Source of the DNA: Bacteroidia bacterium
GTDB lineage: Bacteria > Bacteroidota > Bacteroidia > M30B66
DNA length: 64,000 nt
Direction: 5' to 3'
Assembly: GCA_965279035.1 (NCBI GenBank)
Contig: OZ257142.1
Span: 4,136,667-4,200,666, forward strand
Part shown: piece after piece, positions 28,915-49,854 of the stretch
Layout of the letters: every line of letters begins with the position of its first letter
Position numbering within the stretch: position 1 is the first letter of the stretch
The notes under the pieces: generated by a model
What the model was told of the DNA's origin: nothing
Seen by the model: only the letters and a program-made list of their open reading frames with translations
Database searches by the model: none
Made by a program: the position numbers and the translations under genes

Positions 28915-28996
28915 GCCCAGATGGCGGAATTGGTAGACGCGTTGGTCTCAAACACCAATATCGCGAGATGTGCCGGTTCGATCCCGGCTCTGGGTA
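28915..28996 (+). tRNA. tRNA-Leu (CAA), intact
   Basis: GCCCAGATGGCGGAATTGGTAGACGCGTTGGTCTCAAACACCAATATCGCGAGATGTGCCGGTTCGATCCCGGCTCTGGGTA; long variable arm; promoter-like TATTTTTG at 28878-28885. Confidence 0.97.
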
Positions 28997-28999
28997 CAT

Positions 29000-29030
29000 G
29001 AAAGCAGCTTTTTTAAGCTGCTTTTTTTAT
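29000..29030 (+). terminator. Terminator after tRNA-Leu
   Basis: AAAGCAGCTT-TTTT-AAGCTGCTTT followed by a T-tract. Confidence 0.9.
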
Positions 29031-29234
29031 TTCCCGAATTGCTGTTCTGATAGTAAAAGGAACAATTCTGAATATGGAAAACTCTTAAATGCTATTTTGA
29101 TTTTTTGCTAAGTGAGCACGGCACAAAGAAATTTAATTAAATAGATTTCTATATAATTTTGAGAATAGAACAGTATTTATACTTTTTATAAGTGATTTAG
29201 CGATTTTATTTTGGGGGATCATTAAATTAGGCAT

Positions 29235-29519
29235 ATGGCTGTTTTATACATATTATATTCTGAAAAATTAGACCTTTACTACACTGGTAATTGCTTGTCA
29301 TTTGAAACTCGATTTGAAAACCACTTGAATAAAAGTTTTTCGAAAAGCTATACAACAAATGCAAATGATTGGAAACCTGTTCTCATTATTGAAGATCTAG
29401 AATATAAGCAGGCAAGATTTATAGAAAGACATATAAAGAGAATGAAATCAAAAGATTTCATTCTTAACTTAAAAAAATATCCTGAATTAACGATTAAGTT
29501 AATTCATCTCTACAAATAA
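29235..29519 (+). CDS. Short stand-alone GIY-YIG nuclease (UPF0213/Slx1-like)
   Basis: LYILYS...YYTG, TRFENH and ARFIERHIK supply the Tyr, Tyr, Arg, His and Glu catalytic set. Confidence 0.9.
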   Translation: MAVLYILYSEKLDLYYTGNCLSFETRFENHLNKSFSKSYTTNANDWKPVLIIEDLEYKQARFIERHIKRMKSKDFILNLKKYPELTIKLIHLYK

Positions 29520-29523
29520 TGCA

Positions 29524-29663
29524 GGCGGCTCCGATAATTATCGGAGTGGTAGACGCGTTGGTCTCAAACACCAATATCGCGAGATGTGCCGTTCCGATAG
29601 GTATCGGAACGATCCCGGCTCTGGGTACATGAAAGCAGCTTTTTTAAGCTGCTTTTTTTATTT
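29524..29663 (+). pseudogene. Duplicated tRNA-Leu(CAA) plus terminator, 5' end missing, interrupted by two 18-nt palindromes
   Basis: Matches ~28923-29033 except AAT replaced by CTCCGATAATTATCGGAG (29529-29546), GTT replaced by TTCCGATAGGTATCGGAA (29592-29609), and one fewer T in the terminator tract. Confidence 0.93.
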
Positions 29664-29713: not shown

Positions 29714-30106
29714 ATGAATCACATCAAACTAGTCGAAACGATTTTCTTTGTTAAGGATCAGCAAAAAAGCACTGAATTTTATAAATCTATTTTTCGCAAA
29801 AACCCAGATTTAAATGTACCTGGGATGACCGAGTTTGTACTAGCCGAAAATTTCAAACTAGGTCTAATGCCAAATAAAAGTATCGCAAAAATACTATTAG
29901 ATAAGTTGCCAAATCCAGAACTTGGTAATGGAATTCCTAGATGTGAACTTTATTTATATGTTGAAAATATTGAACTTGAATATGATAACGCTATTAAAAG
30001 TGGAGCAAAATTAATCAGCTCAGTTCAAGACAGAGATTGGGGAGACAAGGCTTGTTATTTTGCTGATATTGATGGGCATGTAATAGCTTTCGCTACAAAA
30101 CTATAA
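29714..30106 (+). CDS. VOC/glyoxalase family protein
   Basis: IFFVKDQQKSTEFY...ELYLYVEN...DRDWGDKACYFADIDGHVI. Confidence 0.88.
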   Translation: MNHIKLVETIFFVKDQQKSTEFYKSIFRKNPDLNVPGMTEFVLAENFKLGLMPNKSIAKILLDKLPNPELGNGIPRCELYLYVENIELEYDNAIKSGAKLISSVQDRDWGDKACYFADIDGHVIAFATKL

Positions 30107-36447: not shown

Positions 36448-36454
36448 TATTAGC

Positions 36455-36874
36455 ACTGTTTATTCGGTTGAATAATCAAATTATTTATTCTTTTCAATTA
36501 TTGAATAATGACTATGATAGCATCTTGCCAATTAATCATTCATGTTTGTCTGCGACTCCATACTTTCTTGTCTTGACACACGCTTCGACAAGCTCAGCGT
36601 GCATTTAAAGAAGGTCAAGTCTGGACGATGCTGCTTACGCTCTAGGCCATTTTTCGACCATTCTGTAAGGACAATCATTTTTCTAATTTAAGTCGAAACA
36701 CACCCTCGCCGCCCAGACATAGCCACCGCTCTGATCCGTTTCTAAACCTAATTATACTTAATACGTTACGTTTAAGGTTATACATTTCCTTTGTATTATG
36801 TGTTAAACTTTAATTATTATTGAAGTTAAATTTCATTTTAACTATTTGTTTTAATTTTTATTCACTCAACGGAT
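36455..36874. mobile_element. IS982-type non-autonomous element with structured core, copy A (degenerate ends)
   Basis: Core 36535-36752 aligns with copies B and C; ends ACTGTTTATTCGGTTGAAT and TTCACTCAACGGAT are decayed versions of the IS982 IR; no target duplication visible. Confidence 0.7.
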
Positions 36875-36876
36875 GA

Positions 36877-37242
36877 TTATCGTATTTCTGGTTTGTAATA
36901 CATATTGAGCGATTCCGGTTTGCCGTCGGCTTTTACATCGAGTTTTGCTTCTTGATCGGATGCATTTAAAAATAATAAAGCTGCTTCTGAAGGAGCTTTT
37001 GCTTTAATGTCTTTTCCTGGTTGAAGTTGGATGAGTTCTTTTTCGGTTCCATCGGATGTGCGAAGTGAAATGATTACTGGAACATTTCCAACATTTTTAG
37101 CATACGCCGAGAATGACTTTGATTGACCACCACCAAGAAAGAATTGTTCGTGAGGTTTTATTGTAAGTTGTGACTTAAACTGGGGTGAAATAAATGCGTA
37201 AAGAATAAGAAGAATTGCAGCGAATGGGAGAATTTTTTTCAT
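36877..37242 (-). CDS. Small exported hypothetical protein
   Basis: MKKILPFAAILLILYAF signal peptide; the longer ORF call starts inside the MITE inverted repeat, so start set at 37242. Confidence 0.75.
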   Translation of the reverse strand: MKKILPFAAILLILYAFISPQFKSQLTIKPHEQFFLGGGQSKSFSAYAKNVGNVPVIISLRTSDGTEKELIQLQPGKDIKAKAPSEAALLFLNASDQEAKLDVKADGKPESLNMYYKPEIR

Positions 37243-37283
37243 GTATTGTTTTTTAATGAACGTGCATGAATTGAAAAGGTTTA

Positions 37284-37685
37284 ACCCGTTGTGCGGTTGA
37301 ATTATCAATTTATTTTATCATATTAAACAATGAAATAAGGCTGTTAATGCTTCTTGACACTATATCATTCATGTTTGTCTACGACGTATTAATTCTTGTC
37401 TTGACACACGCTTCGACAAGCTCAGCGTGCATTTAAAGAAGGTCAAGTCTGGACGATGCTGCTTACGCACCAGGCCTTTTTTCGACCATTTTGCTCGGAT
37501 AAGCTTTTTTTTCATCTATGTCGAAACACACCCTCGCCGCCCAGACATAGCCTCCACAAGATCCGTTTCTAAACCTAATTTTAATTTAAATAATTTAATC
37601 TAAAGGCATTACATAAGTAATGATTATTGGGGTAAGCGATAAATAGTGTTGAAGGATAATTCTAATTTTTAACCGCACAACGGGA
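37284..37685. mobile_element. IS982-type MITE with structured core, copy B (intact)
   Basis: IRs ACCCGTTGTGCGGTT / AACCGCACAACGGGA, matching the IS at 41024-42044 but for the last base; 8-bp target duplication AAGGTTTA (37276-37283, 37686-37693); no internal ORF in the track. Confidence 0.92.
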
Positions 37686-40078: not shown

Positions 40079-40117
40079 AGGTGGAGAGAAGCGGAACCTT
40101 GCCATTAGTTGCACAAA

Positions 40118-40984
40118 TTAAAACAATAATATTCCGAGTTTTAAATTGAGATATAGACCGAAGTTTAATTTTGTAGCTTTTATATTAGTAAGATAGCTAT
40201 TTTCATTATTGCTAAATGCAAACAGATTTGCTCCGTTTTTATGGGCAATTAGGGAGGAAAAAATGTTGTCTGAACTATTTGGAGAGTTTGTGATATTTAA
40301 AGATGTTCCAAAATTTAAATCGAGCATCATACGTGAATTTAGCAAATAGTTTTTCCCACCGCCCATAAATAAGCTAAAGAAAGACACATTTACATCTTTA
40401 AAATTAACTCGCCTTACGCCATCATAAATTAATTGCCAAGAATAATCATATTCATGAGCATAAATATAAGGTGCATTAAAAGATCCTGATATTATTTGTT
40501 TACCTGCTTTAAATCCTAATTGAAAATAACTTCCATAAGGAGCAGATATAGCTCCTCCACGATAGAAATTCATTGAAAGTCCAAATACCCGTTGCTTTGC
40601 AGTAATATGCACATTGGGTTGATATGAAACTTGATGGTTTATTAGTTCAGCTAAATCATAATTCGAGAATTTTGATTTAATTATCTCTCTATCATAGTTT
40701 GGCAGGTATTGATCCCATTTATTATTTGTAGCGCGCTCCATCCAATAGATAAAATTTGACCCTTTGAAAATGCCATGAATGGGAGTTTGGGTGATCGAGT
40801 AGCTTAGTGCAATGGTAAAACTTCGTGTTACTACAGATTCTAATTCGATGTTTGTAATGGGGCGACGGATTCCATTAACTATATCTGTTTTTAATAGAAA
40901 TCGTTTGCCCATAATTCCCACTTGAGAAATAGAAGGGAGTGTGAGAATAGTTAAAACGAGAATTAGCAAATAGGACTTACGCAT
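40118..40984 (-). CDS. Putative outer-membrane beta-barrel protein, paralog 2
   Basis: Signal peptide, C-terminal FGLYLNLKLGILLF; long identical blocks with 42145-43053. Confidence 0.8.
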   Translation of the reverse strand: MRKSYLLILVLTILTLPSISQVGIMGKRFLLKTDIVNGIRRPITNIELESVVTRSFTIALSYSITQTPIHGIFKGSNFIYWMERATNNKWDQYLPNYDREIIKSKFSNYDLAELINHQVSYQPNVHITAKQRVFGLSMNFYRGGAISAPYGSYFQLGFKAGKQIISGSFNAPYIYAHEYDYSWQLIYDGVRRVNFKDVNVSFFSLFMGGGKNYLLNSRMMLDLNFGTSLNITNSPNSSDNIFSSLIAHKNGANLFAFSNNENSYLTNIKATKLNFGLYLNLKLGILLF

Positions 40985-41023
40985 AGTGAATGAAAATCGA
41001 ATGAATATAGATTATTAGATATA

Positions 41024-42044
41024 ACCCGTTGTGCGGTTAAAAAGCCAAAGTATGTTTGACCTGGTTTAGAGGTCTTTGATTGATCATATTCAAGTATTGT
41101 AGACAAGTGAATGCCCCTATTTTACTAGTGATTCGTGCAAAGAATCCATAAAAGCTTTTAGCAAAATTCTTTTTAATTGAGAACTGATCACAGAATTGAG
41201 AAAAGGTTGTTTCGATTCTTTTTCTTGTTTTGCGATATAGTGGATTCCATTGAGTTGGTCCAACTTGATTTCCACGCAATGGTGTAATCAATTTTACTGA
41301 GTATTCTTTGAATAAACTTAATTGGATGTTTTTCCCAATATAACCTTTGTCCCCAAGCAAATTTACATTCTCTAAAAACCCTTTTGTCATATCATCTAAA
41401 GTCTTTACATCATGCACATTTGCTTGCGTTATAGCGAAATTATTGATTACTGAATTTGAGCTAACAACCATATTGAGTTTATAACCAAAATAATGCGTTT
41501 TATCAATTGCAGAAAATCCTTTTGCAGGCAAAAAATCAAGATCATCTTTCATAATTTTAAGATTACTACAACGAACAAAACGACAAATTGGAAGAGGCAT
41601 TGAATCTATGATAAAAGTTTCTTCTCCTTCAGAAAGTTCATTACTTAGTTTTTCAGAGAGCTGATCAATAAAAGGCTGCAAGAATCTTCTGCGTCGATTG
41701 AAATTAGTTCTGTCTGGAAGTGTTTTGCAATACTTTGGATATGAATTTCTTAGAATTGAGAATAGCATGTTTTCAGAATCTATTTGCATTGCTTCTGCTG
41801 TAAAAGCCAATGCAACTATCTCAATATCTGAAGCTTTAGGCTGGTTCGAGTATCGACGAAAATTTCCATTTGTCAGATTATCAGCGCCATATACTTCGAT
41901 TAGCAATTGACGAAACTTGGTTATATTCGCTATGAGGTTGTGCATATTAGATTTGTGTGAGAACTCTTCTAATATACTGTATATCAGTTTAATGCACAAC
42001 CTTATTTTAAATTAATTATCTACATATTCAACCGCACAACGGGT
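41024..42044 (-). mobile_element. IS982-family insertion sequence, 1021 bp
   Basis: Perfect 15-bp IRs ACCCGTTGTGCGGTT; 8-bp target duplication TAGATATA (41016-41023, 42045-42052). Confidence 0.95.
41037..41945 (-). CDS. IS982-family DDE transposase
   Basis: SDIEIV, FNRRRR, IIDSMPLPIC, YFGYKL, ANVHD, LLGDKGYI, RKRIETTFSQ; stop codon overlaps the IR. Confidence 0.95.
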   Translation of the reverse strand: MHNLIANITKFRQLLIEVYGADNLTNGNFRRYSNQPKASDIEIVALAFTAEAMQIDSENMLFSILRNSYPKYCKTLPDRTNFNRRRRFLQPFIDQLSEKLSNELSEGEETFIIDSMPLPICRFVRCSNLKIMKDDLDFLPAKGFSAIDKTHYFGYKLNMVVSSNSVINNFAITQANVHDVKTLDDMTKGFLENVNLLGDKGYIGKNIQLSLFKEYSVKLITPLRGNQVGPTQWNPLYRKTRKRIETTFSQFCDQFSIKKNFAKSFYGFFARITSKIGAFTCLQYLNMINQRPLNQVKHTLAF

Positions 42045-42144
42045 TAGATATAACTTAATGAATAAAAATTTAGCTGAGTTATTTCGCATTTTTTAATTAG
42101 AAAACTCAGTACCAACATGCTCTTTAAATTCATTTCTAATGATA

Positions 42145-43053
42145 TTAAAACAAGAGTATTCCGAGTTTAAGGTTGAGATATAATCCAAAATTTACTTTAG
42201 ATGTATGTTGACTAATTGTAATGCTTTTTTCATTATCGCTAAAAGCAGCCAGATTAGCTCCGTTTTTATGTGCTATTAAGGAAGAAAAAATATTATCTGA
42301 ATCATCTTTGGGAGTAGTAACATTTAAAGAAGTTCCAAAATTTAAATCGAGCATCATGCGTGAATTAAGCAAATAGTTTTTTCCTCCACCCATAAATAGA
42401 GAAATGAATGACACATTTACATCTTTAAAATCAACTCGTTTTACTCCATTATAAAAGTATTGATAAATGAAATCATTTTTAAAAGCATAGATATAGGGTG
42501 CATTGAATGAACCCGATATTATTTGTTTTCCCGCTTTAAAGCCTAATTGAAAGTAACTTCCAAAAGGGGCCGAAATAGCGCCTCCATGATAGAAATTCAT
42601 TGAGAGCCCAAAAACACGCTGCTTTGCTGTGATACGCACATTGGGATTAAATGAAGCTTGATTTTTAATTAAAGTAATTAAACTATTGATATCATAATTT
42701 GAAGTAATATCATTTCGATTATAATCAGGAAGATATTCGTTCCATGTTTTATCGGAAGAATGATCCATCCAATAGATAAAATTTGAGCCTTTGAATATGC
42801 CATGAATGGGAGTTTGGGTGATAGAATAGCTCAGTGATAGTGTAAAACTTCGCGTTAATGCTGTTTCTAATTCGATGTTCGTAATGGGGCGACGGATTCC
42901 ATTGACAACATCTGTTTTTAATAAAAATCGTTTGCCCATAAGGCCCACTTGGGCATGCACACAATTGCTTTGAACAACTAAAAATACTATGCTTAATAAA
43001 ACAAATGTTTGTCTTAATTTAATGAATTGAGTATTGGTAAATACTACGATCAT
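42145..43053 (-). CDS. Putative outer-membrane beta-barrel protein, paralog 1
   Basis: Signal peptide, amphipathic strands, C-terminal Phe; paralog of 40118-40984. Confidence 0.8.
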   Translation of the reverse strand: MIVVFTNTQFIKLRQTFVLLSIVFLVVQSNCVHAQVGLMGKRFLLKTDVVNGIRRPITNIELETALTRSFTLSLSYSITQTPIHGIFKGSNFIYWMDHSSDKTWNEYLPDYNRNDITSNYDINSLITLIKNQASFNPNVRITAKQRVFGLSMNFYHGGAISAPFGSYFQLGFKAGKQIISGSFNAPYIYAFKNDFIYQYFYNGVKRVDFKDVNVSFISLFMGGGKNYLLNSRMMLDLNFGTSLNVTTPKDDSDNIFSSLIAHKNGANLAAFSDNEKSITISQHTSKVNFGLYLNLKLGILLF

Positions 43054-49322: not shown

Positions 49323-49414
49323 TGGGAAGGGTAAAAATTGGAGCGCAAAATTAAGTTAAAATTGAAGGCTGCGCTTATATGGAATGAATGGAAAAATGGA
49401 AAAAATGTTTTTTA

Positions 49415-49854
49415 ACCTGATGCCCGGATGACTAATCAAAATTTATTTTTCATTTCAATCATTGAGATATTACTTTAGTTGCATCTTGTTAATAAATCAT
49501 TCATGTTTGTATACGACGTATTAATTCTTGTCTTGAAACAAGAATTAATCAACGGCGAAGCCCTCATGAGTTCATTTTAAAAATAAACACTTACGAATAA
49601 AGAAGTTCAAGTCTGGACGATGCTGCTTACGCTCAAGGCCCTTTTTCGACCATTCTGCAAGTATAAACTTTTGTCCAATCGATGTCGAAACACACCCTCG
49701 CCGCCCAGACATAGCCACCACAAGATCCGTTTCAATTCTAAACCTAATATTAATTTAAATAATTTTATTTAAAAGCATTACATAAGTATTGATTATTGAG
49801 GTAAGGGATAAATATTTTTGAAGGATAATTCTAATTTTTAACCTCACAACGGGT
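49415..49854. mobile_element. IS982-type non-autonomous element with structured core, copy C
   Basis: Right IR AACCTCACAACGGGT (1 mismatch); left end ACCTGATGCCCGGATGA decayed; core and right arm colinear with copy B. Confidence 0.85.

Follow-up and report, generated by a model that had tools for sequence, protein, structure and literature searches.

How does a lone nuclease gene come to lie between an intact tRNA gene and a damaged copy of it? The question is raised by a stretch of 64,000 nucleotides (nt) from a Bacteroidia bacterium (assembly GCA_965279035.1, contig OZ257142.1, positions 4,136,667 to 4,200,666 of the forward strand; hereafter the window, numbered from its first letter), in which an open reading frame (ORF) for a 94-residue GIY-YIG protein stands between tRNA-Leu(CAA) and a partial duplicate of that gene. 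In our judgement, the window rather probably contains a single copy of a selfish unit that is linked to a nuclease, has no integrase and resides within partial duplications of tRNA and transfer-messenger RNA (tmRNA) genes in Bacteroidota. Such a unit is made up of a gene for a single-domain GIY-YIG protein of ~94 residues, an 18-nt hairpin-forming palindrome (TCCCGATAGCTATCGGGA), and a piece of the target tRNA.

The locus in the window

The arrangement, which had been described in an earlier note made from the letters of this DNA, is real and comprises the following features:

28915..28997, + strand: intact tRNA-Leu(CAA) (ARAGORN; Rfam RF00005, 55.5 bits)
29000..29032, + strand: terminator hairpin and T-run, copy 1 (hairpin 29000-29025; identity with copy 2 stops at 29032)
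29033..29234, no strand: AT-rich unique spacer of 202 nt, free of palindromes and tRNA fragments (sequence comparison)
29235..29519, + strand: gene for the 94-residue single-domain GIY-YIG nuclease, catalytic residues intact (Pfam PF01541, E 6.8e-8; alignments; predicted model)
29524..29628, + strand: defective tRNA-Leu(CAA) copy, from position 9 to the 3' end, without the 5' acceptor strand (repeat comparison)
29529..29546, no strand: palindrome 1, CTCCGATAATTATCGGAG, in place of D-loop nt 14-16, a variant of the family 18-mer (alignment to the intact tRNA)
29592..29609, no strand: palindrome 2, TTCCGATAGGTATCGGAA, in place of GTT at the T-stem/T-loop border (alignment to the intact tRNA)
29631..29663, + strand: terminator hairpin and T-run, copy 2 (repeat comparison)

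The intact tRNA with its terminator and the AT-rich spacer are as the note had them. The defective copy begins 5 nt past the stop of the ORF, at 29524 (GGCGG, tRNA positions 9-13), and the repeat runs on through the terminator until identity ends at 29663 in the second copy and at 29032 in the first, the ungapped segments being one of 52 nt with 96% identity and one of 74 nt with 89%. This second copy was called as a tRNA neither by ARAGORN nor by an Rfam scan at E ≤ 1. Between the two copies, where the note had seen no other cargo, no further frame of at least 40 residues gave a family match, and the element is present in the window as a single copy with an intact ORF.

The two 18-nt insertions, which had been taken for palindromic edits of the tRNA copy, are real; what had not been foreseen is that they are copies of one conserved, genome-wide 18-mer. 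Palindrome 1 replaces A14-A15-T16 of the D-loop and palindrome 2 replaces GTT, each with a net gain of 15 nt, and both have diverged from the family consensus, yet are still self-complementary. They share the core TCCGATANNTATCGGA, which occurs twice in the window against 0.21 expected (a count of 2 was reached in 1 of 100 shuffles). Both lie downstream of the nuclease gene only, and the region, folded as single-stranded DNA, forms hairpins far above shuffled sequences (z -7.3).

Association of the nuclease family with tRNA and tmRNA genes

Relatives of the window protein were collected by a word-limited protein search (13 close relatives), by a profile search of 1.84 billion representatives (4441 matches at E ≤ 1e-3, 784 at E ≤ 1e-10), and by a pattern scan in which each prokaryote species was represented by one genome (317 relatives); the best 80 of these, nearly all from Bacteroidota to judge by their titles, were taken as loci for comparison. 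A same-strand tRNA or tmRNA gene was found within 500 nt of the nuclease gene or array in 66 of the 80 loci, whereas the remaining far flanks contained 7 tRNA or tmRNA genes in 256,517 nt. The orientation was strict: all 66 pairs were co-oriented, and no locus (0/80) had an opposite-strand tRNA alone. Fourteen loci were without a nearby tRNA, and 9 of these end within ~200 nt upstream. The partners fell into 11 anticodon classes, namely Leu (CAA, TAA, GAG, TAG and CAG), Val (GAC and TAC), Asn, Met, Thr and Phe, besides tmRNA in 4 loci. The expectation of the earlier note that homologs would be enriched at pairs of tRNA and defective tRNA across isotypes is thus borne out. Moreover, strong and more distant paralogs in five genomes lay beside Leu, Val, Met, Asn, Ile, Ala, Lys, Pro and Arg tRNAs.

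The organization of these loci recalls that of the window. In most of them, pieces of the adjacent tRNA, split by +15-nt inserts, are found beyond the gene, and in some a defective 5' tRNA copy that retains the tRNA upstream region is placed before the ORF. The recurring unit measures ~0.4-0.6 kb, with nothing inside but the nuclease gene, and forms tandem arrays of 2-5 genes (five in L033, four in L069 and three in L006), as had been anticipated. At the tmRNA loci (tmRNA at 2924-3310 in L012, 2793-3163 in L013, 2791-3161 in L022 and 2814-3216 in L027), the nuclease gene lies just upstream of ssrA and is preceded by a copy of the tmRNA 5' end split by the palindrome, which places the tRNA-like domain of tmRNA in the target class. 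At L054:1741-2345, four tandem 121-nt units stand upstream of an intact tRNA-Leu(CAA), in each of which the tRNA upstream region and tRNA positions 1-13 are joined through the palindrome to positions 17 to ~30; hence 5' tRNA fragments multiply too, like 3' fragments. Related habits were also seen among more distant small GIY-YIG paralogs (L104/L113, G005:C1:1154840-1155127; L097, from genome G004; and G020:C1:1928164-1929988), which include one 3-gene array beside tRNA-Met and one 5-gene array.

When the tRNA partners were mapped on a protein tree of 94 ORFs, a poorly resolved one (45 of its 86 branches are open, with 93 columns to draw on) in which related rows share labels, 21 partner changes were counted versus a mean of 46 after shuffling; no shuffle out of 200 came down to 21, and at least 10 changes are needed in any case. 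These counts suggest that lineages mostly retain their tRNA partner, with several switches. The family of such units in Bacteroidota is large and apparently undescribed.

A conserved palindrome at the junctions

The motif CCGATNNNNATCGG, with at most one mismatch allowed, gave 173 matches in 76 of the 80 loci, as compared with a mean of 5.8 and a maximum of 14 in shuffles, and 100 of the 173 were the exact sequence CCGATAGCTATCGG. The consensus of the 18-mer given above was drawn from 152 distinct contexts and has a centre of 4 nt; the two palindromes of the window are variants of it. In 43 of the 52 cases where both flanks could be placed on the intact tRNA, exactly 3 nt were replaced, and the lost triplet was ANT in 21 of 30 distinct events. 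One recurring site is the D-loop, where the palindrome follows tRNA position 13 and the sequence resumes at 17; the others are the T-loop at 58-60, either side of the anticodon loop, and the variable-loop/T-stem border. The idea that the palindrome centre keeps the replaced tRNA triplet fits the D-loop of the window (AAT within AATT) but fails at other loci, and was rejected.

These junctions bear on a conventional explanation, according to which the locus is the attR (attachment-site) scar of a decayed or trans-mobilised integrase-driven tRNA island and the GIY-YIG gene its left-over cargo. In its favour, integrases classically target tRNA and tmRNA genes, within which they use the anticodon and T-loops. 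In the window, however, neither an integrase nor an integrase remnant was found between or beside the tRNA repeats, and no tyrosine integrase (PF00589) matched among the 110 longest of the 242 open frames in the flanks of the 80 loci, in keeping with the integrase-free character proposed in the earlier note. The sole recombinase in the flank frames examined is a large serine recombinase in one locus (L035:2785-4644, - strand), next to tRNA-Leu(GAG) after the nuclease gene; this 1 of 80 loci is the other point in favour of an island, and it may be a separate island at the same tRNA. The recurrence of a ~0.4-0.6-kb unit carrying the nuclease gene alone at 11 anticodon classes, the conserved junction palindrome with its 4-nt centre, D-loop sites unlike known att cores, and tandem arrays of up to 5 genes all speak against such a scar, which we consider very improbable.

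Filled and empty sites

Entry of a unit can be read most clearly at the tRNA-Gly/tRNA-Leu(TAA) locus, which was compared across 30 genomes of the genus of Aequorivita marina (G001, the genome of L003). The locus is empty in 27 of the 30, whereas L136, L137 and L148 hold 1, 3 and 2 nuclease genes, respectively. In empty L165 and L160, the tRNA is followed by a terminator (A) and then by the flank. In filled L148, another terminator (B) stands behind the intact tRNA, and after it the ORF, whose last codons continue into a repeat of the T-stem 5' strand and into the palindrome, with the palindrome centre serving as the TAG stop; the unit is present twice, and after it come the last 14 nt of the tRNA, terminator A and the flank. 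In this one filled-versus-empty comparison, the terminator behind the intact tRNA is therefore that of the element, which places the crossover in or just after the last 14 nt of the tRNA. A discrete unit has thus entered at the T-loop, and the chromosome's own 3' end and terminator A are displaced behind the palindrome. The element in L148 accordingly brings along a substitute for the tRNA's 3' portion, a feature that the earlier note had not foreseen.

For the site in the window, the tRNA-Leu(CAA) sequence was used on 400 sampled Bacteroidia genomes, 178 of which matched at E ≤ 1e-15, and a nuclease gene was found in 2 of the best 30 loci. The nearest sampled relatives (L252 and L253; Prs 90% and 89% identical) show the order L25-prs, tRNA-Leu(CAA) with a terminator, and a CHU_C gene (52% identity), and have no GIY-YIG gene, tRNA fragment, palindrome or VOC gene at this site. 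Empty sites in relatives, as predicted in the note, therefore exist both here and in the 27 of 30 genomes above.

The empty orthologous sites contradict simple vertical inheritance, and they bear on the view that an ordinary, vertically inherited small gene stands by chance beside a tRNA gene whose second copy is a chance local duplication. The layout of prs, tRNA-Leu(CAA) and GIY-YIG gene does recur in four more distant lineages (L014, L067, L054 and L038), as this view would have it. But the nearest sampled relatives with the same flanks are without the gene, and the many tRNA types together with the recurring palindrome cannot be due to chance; we regard this explanation as barely credible.

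The surroundings of the element in the window are housekeeping genes, for C1 peptidase, Pth, L25 and Prs on the left and, on the right, for a VOC/glyoxalase-fold protein and a CHU_C type IX secretion protein. The VOC gene (29714-30106, + strand) lies directly after the defective tRNA and may have arrived independently of the element or along with it. The sequence of a freshwater relative (X5) departs from that of the window just past the terminator, at 29032, and is not readable as an empty site, a metagenome scan with the VOC protein gave no nearby prs, tRNA-Leu or nuclease gene, and hence no empty site, in the first 45 of 80 loci, and synteny was not conserved in the 5 genomes of the order of G006. 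Elsewhere in the window, at 21273-21342 (- strand), between tRNA-Ala and the 23S ribosomal RNA (rRNA) gene of the rRNA operon, Rfam gave a weak extra tRNA (37.9 bits) that was not called by ARAGORN and has an anticodon loop irregular by eye; this could be what is left of a tRNA copy after decay. Far from the element, at 36448-37684, 40117-42951 and 49408-49853, are several families of direct repeats, 100-300 nt long and 61-92% identical.

Genome-wide spread of the palindrome

The palindrome is not confined to the units. Its copies numbered 60, 11, 49, 11 and 26 in five genomes, as compared with 0-1 for the reversed control, and they far outnumber the nuclease genes and mostly lie at a distance from them. 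In genome G005, a tRNA was nearby at just 2 of 20 fetched sites, both in rRNA operons, and the other fetched sites were inside inverted repeats such as terminator-like hairpins. In two G005 rRNA operons (L117 and L120), the palindrome is at locus position 399 of an identical 16S-23S spacer arrangement, between tRNA-Ile and tRNA-Ala, where it adjoins a fragment resembling a tRNA 3' end.

When the flanks of 41 sites from G005 and G003 were folded with the palindrome removed, the mean energy was -6.1 versus -1.85 kcal/mol at 613 controls (Mann-Whitney p 4e-6), and at least 4 pairs spanned the junction at 30 of the 41 sites versus 43% of the controls. Many G003 flanks are themselves symmetric, so that the folding excess may partly reflect a longer repeat rather than insertion. 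In G003 (L276, L277, L280, L281, L287 and L294), the 18-mer is nested in symmetric flanks, ...TCCCGA[18-mer]TCGGGA..., at terminator-like hairpins, which look like nested or extended palindromes.

Palindrome and gene also vary together. Across 41 genomes of one genus, the palindrome count ranged from 0 to 75 (reversed control, 0 in each), and the gene was present at E ≤ 1e-15 in 17 genomes and without a match in 24; the two counts were correlated when relatedness was ignored (Spearman 0.53, p 3e-4; medians 11 versus 3).

The nuclease protein

The product of the ORF matches the Pfam GIY-YIG domain at 33.1 bits, above the cut-off of 22.6, with the E value listed above. Its residues Y5, Y16, R26, H30, E64 and N78 are invariant across the 13 relatives, confirming the earlier reading that the catalytic residues are in place, and the first five of these are at least 90% conserved across 76 sequences. 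The predicted structure (predicted local distance difference test score, pLDDT, 94) has a GIY-YIG core with elements in the order E-E-H-H-E-H and two short C-terminal helices; the three-stranded sheet with flanking helices of the GIY-YIG superfamily is present in the model, in which the two helices are all that extends beyond the core and no separate DNA-binding domain is seen. Searches of the PDB by sequence and by fold gave weak matches of the GIY-YIG kind only (best E 9e-3), namely UPF0213 BH0048, Slx1/HIGLE, the I-TevI catalytic domain and the UvrC N-domain. In NCBIfam, the only match, to a group I intron endonuclease, fell below the threshold (E 0.012). Among the protein representatives (P0014-P0163), many are 110-150 residues long, with the match beginning at residue 25-56; gene callers appear to stretch the ORF upstream into the region of the tRNA fragment and palindrome.

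A selfish unit or a host-kept system

The closest characterised single-domain GIY-YIG proteins are the Ssn proteins, which have 94 residues (cd10448) and whose cleavage is confined to single-stranded DNA next to their cognate hairpin repeat (Chenal et al. 2025, PMC11893778). This preference for a hairpin in single strands over duplex tRNA genes had not entered the earlier note. The main rival explanation is that the present system is of the Ssn type, kept by the host and not self-mobile. The nuclease and repeat would then modulate recombination or incoming single-stranded DNA, as has been proposed for SsnA and its NTS repeat in Neisseria (PMC11893778), the gene would stand beside a tRNA for its expression, and the tRNA fragments and arrays would be by-products of palindrome recombination. 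Size, single domain and flanking hairpin repeats do match the published description of Ssn; the excess of palindromes over genes, the conserved catalytic residues, the absence of copies from the phage and plasmid records searched, and the defective 5' copies that retain the tRNA upstream region before the ORF in some loci all accord with a host function. On the other hand, in one genus 24 of the 41 genomes are without the gene, 27 of the 30 orthologous sites are empty, the copy number varies from 0 to 5, and the unit carries its own terminator and restores the tRNA 3' end. Since absence, variable copy number and a self-supplied terminator and 3' end fit a parasite better than a kept host function, we hold the host-kept explanation to be rather unlikely.

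Several points nevertheless weigh against a selfish unit. The family had no match in PHROGs, phage records or plasmid records, so that no vehicle for transfer from cell to cell was seen. Both tRNA copies in the window have the same terminator, which makes this junction less informative than that of L148, and, where the earlier note had advised looking for circles or copy-number variation in reads, three runs of organism A, at the level of contigs, showed the element at a depth equal to that of its flanks and no joints. Many loci come from metagenome bins, where repeats may be mis-assembled, and the clustering of tRNA partners in the poorly resolved protein tree would also be expected from shared descent. 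Palindromes remain in 23 of the 24 genomes without a gene match, the correlation of palindrome and gene counts takes no account of relatedness, and another small GIY-YIG paralog in G005, which is without a tRNA, has the same palindrome ~66 nt upstream, so that either protein may act on the palindrome. Cleavage, substrate and strand are all deduced from computational analysis. GIY-YIG enzymes hydrolyse DNA, and to our knowledge none joins it; likewise, we know of no chemistry that matches the precise replacement of 3 nt by 18 nt. Finally, the intact tRNA beside the gene stays unbroken, so that this working copy would have to be immune.

Proposed mechanism and its implications

If the locus is a selfish unit, its spread might proceed as follows. 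The nuclease would recognise the palindrome hairpin, the hairpin junctions of tRNA genes, or both, probably on single-stranded DNA as Ssn does. The break in the tRNA gene would be repaired by copying an element-bearing template, with conserved tRNA sequence serving as the homology, and this repair would insert the nuclease gene and restore the tRNA. Arrays could then grow when repeated tRNA 3' segments and palindromes recombine unequally, in the manner of phage SegB/tRNA amplification (see below), and the bare palindrome may spread in trans. The strict co-orientation would fit either a strand-specific mechanism or read-through expression. The interpretation given in the earlier note is partly supported, and its predictions on distribution were all borne out.

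Carried further, these considerations would lead to a new kind of mobile DNA free of transposase and integrase: a 94-residue GIY-YIG single-strand nuclease and an 18-nt hairpin that insert "hairpin into hairpin", the palindrome being exchanged for 3 nt where stem meets loop, with the gene-carrying form using tRNA or tmRNA sequence as portable homology arms and rebuilding the tRNA that it interrupts. We put this forward tentatively, as a possibility that we would sooner doubt than rely on. If it were true, an element of this kind could invade essential single-copy genes across a phylum, pairs of Ssn and hairpin would in general be selfish elements, and the defective tRNA copies would be natural footprints of nuclease/hairpin chemistry. 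Small single-domain GIY-YIG genes are annotated without a role in thousands of genomes. The Bacteroidota units would also explain why assemblies from this phylum so often show, next to tRNA genes, tRNA fragments, small ORFs in tandem and breaks between contigs, and they suggest a nuclease/hairpin pair of new specificity that could serve in tools for single-stranded DNA.

Comparison with known systems

Searches of the literature on GIY-YIG, Ssn, and tRNA fragments and adjacency, and for the palindrome 14-mer and 16-mer as text, found no prior description of these units; in the portion available of the GIY-YIG survey of Dunin-Horkawicz (2006), tRNA is mentioned solely for a methyltransferase fusion. 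Four known systems share some of the features.

The units resemble tyrosine-integrase islands in their insertion into tRNA and tmRNA genes, the 3' end supplied by the element, the displaced fragment, and junctions in the anticodon and T-loops. Unlike such islands, they show no tyrosine integrase in the flank frames examined, are only ~0.4-0.6 kb long, have D-loop junctions and a palindrome at the junction, and form arrays.

Repetitive extragenic palindromic (REP) sequences and bacterial interspersed mosaic elements (BIMEs) with their RAYT proteins, and the insertion sequences IS200/IS605, likewise link a dispersed short palindrome to one small nuclease gene and have hairpins as targets. RAYT and IS200/IS605 proteins are, however, HUH transesterases, whereas the present protein has a GIY-YIG hydrolase fold, and we know of no covalent-intermediate chemistry for GIY-YIG enzymes.

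Free-standing homing endonucleases offer a third likeness, in that the present gene is present or absent at an orthologous site beside its presumed target. Among them, SegB has a GIY-YIG gene that adjoins tRNA genes and tandem repeats of tRNA and nuclease, as here; it has a separate DNA-binding part, whereas the present protein is shorter and had no match in phage records or PHROGs, and SegB is not known to have an associated palindrome. According to the part of the account available, SegB of T-even phages is tied to tRNA genes and cuts inside them, its tandem repeats of tRNA and segB arise by recombination at short homologies, and the amplified segB copies bear a 28-residue C-terminal truncation (PMC13096335). 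The SegB cleavage motif RAWTSGAAC (PMC13096335) reads GTTCSAWTY on the other strand, which, by our own reading of the letters, resembles the T-loop, the location of many of the present junctions.

The nearest likeness in the size and domain of the protein is with Ssn (SsnA with NTS/SRM). The present protein is also a single GIY-YIG domain of ~94 residues, and beside its gene stands a short inverted repeat able to form a hairpin, further copies of which are spread through the genome in numbers that co-vary with the gene; in Ssn, the hairpin repeat flanks the gene, is dispersed in the genome and tracks gene presence in number, and the layout of repeat, gene and repeat was itself remarked on as insertion-sequence-like (PMC11893778). 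The present repeat differs in being a shorter, near-perfect 18-nt palindrome, and the SRM search pattern of the Ssn paper was not enriched in the Bacteroidota genomes that the paper lists (fold 0.2-2.1; PMC11893778). Supplementary Data 4 of the paper marks a cd10448 homolog for C. aurantiaca, A. todarodis and P. terrae (PMC11893778), which hold the present family; these genomes also hold other small GIY-YIG paralogs, so that the mark may refer to those or to the present family. In its main text, the words "tRNA" and "Bacteroid" have 0 occurrences (PMC11893778), and the position beside tRNA or tmRNA genes, within partial tRNA duplications that form arrays, sets the present genes apart from the Ssn description. 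The work on Ssn left open its role outside Neisseria and how the repeats multiply (PMC11893778). To these questions the Bacteroidota units add sites that occur in nature both filled and empty, an exact molecular footprint, in which 18 nt take the place of 3 nt at stem-loop junctions, and a defined target class, the tRNA and tmRNA genes, by which both become directly testable.

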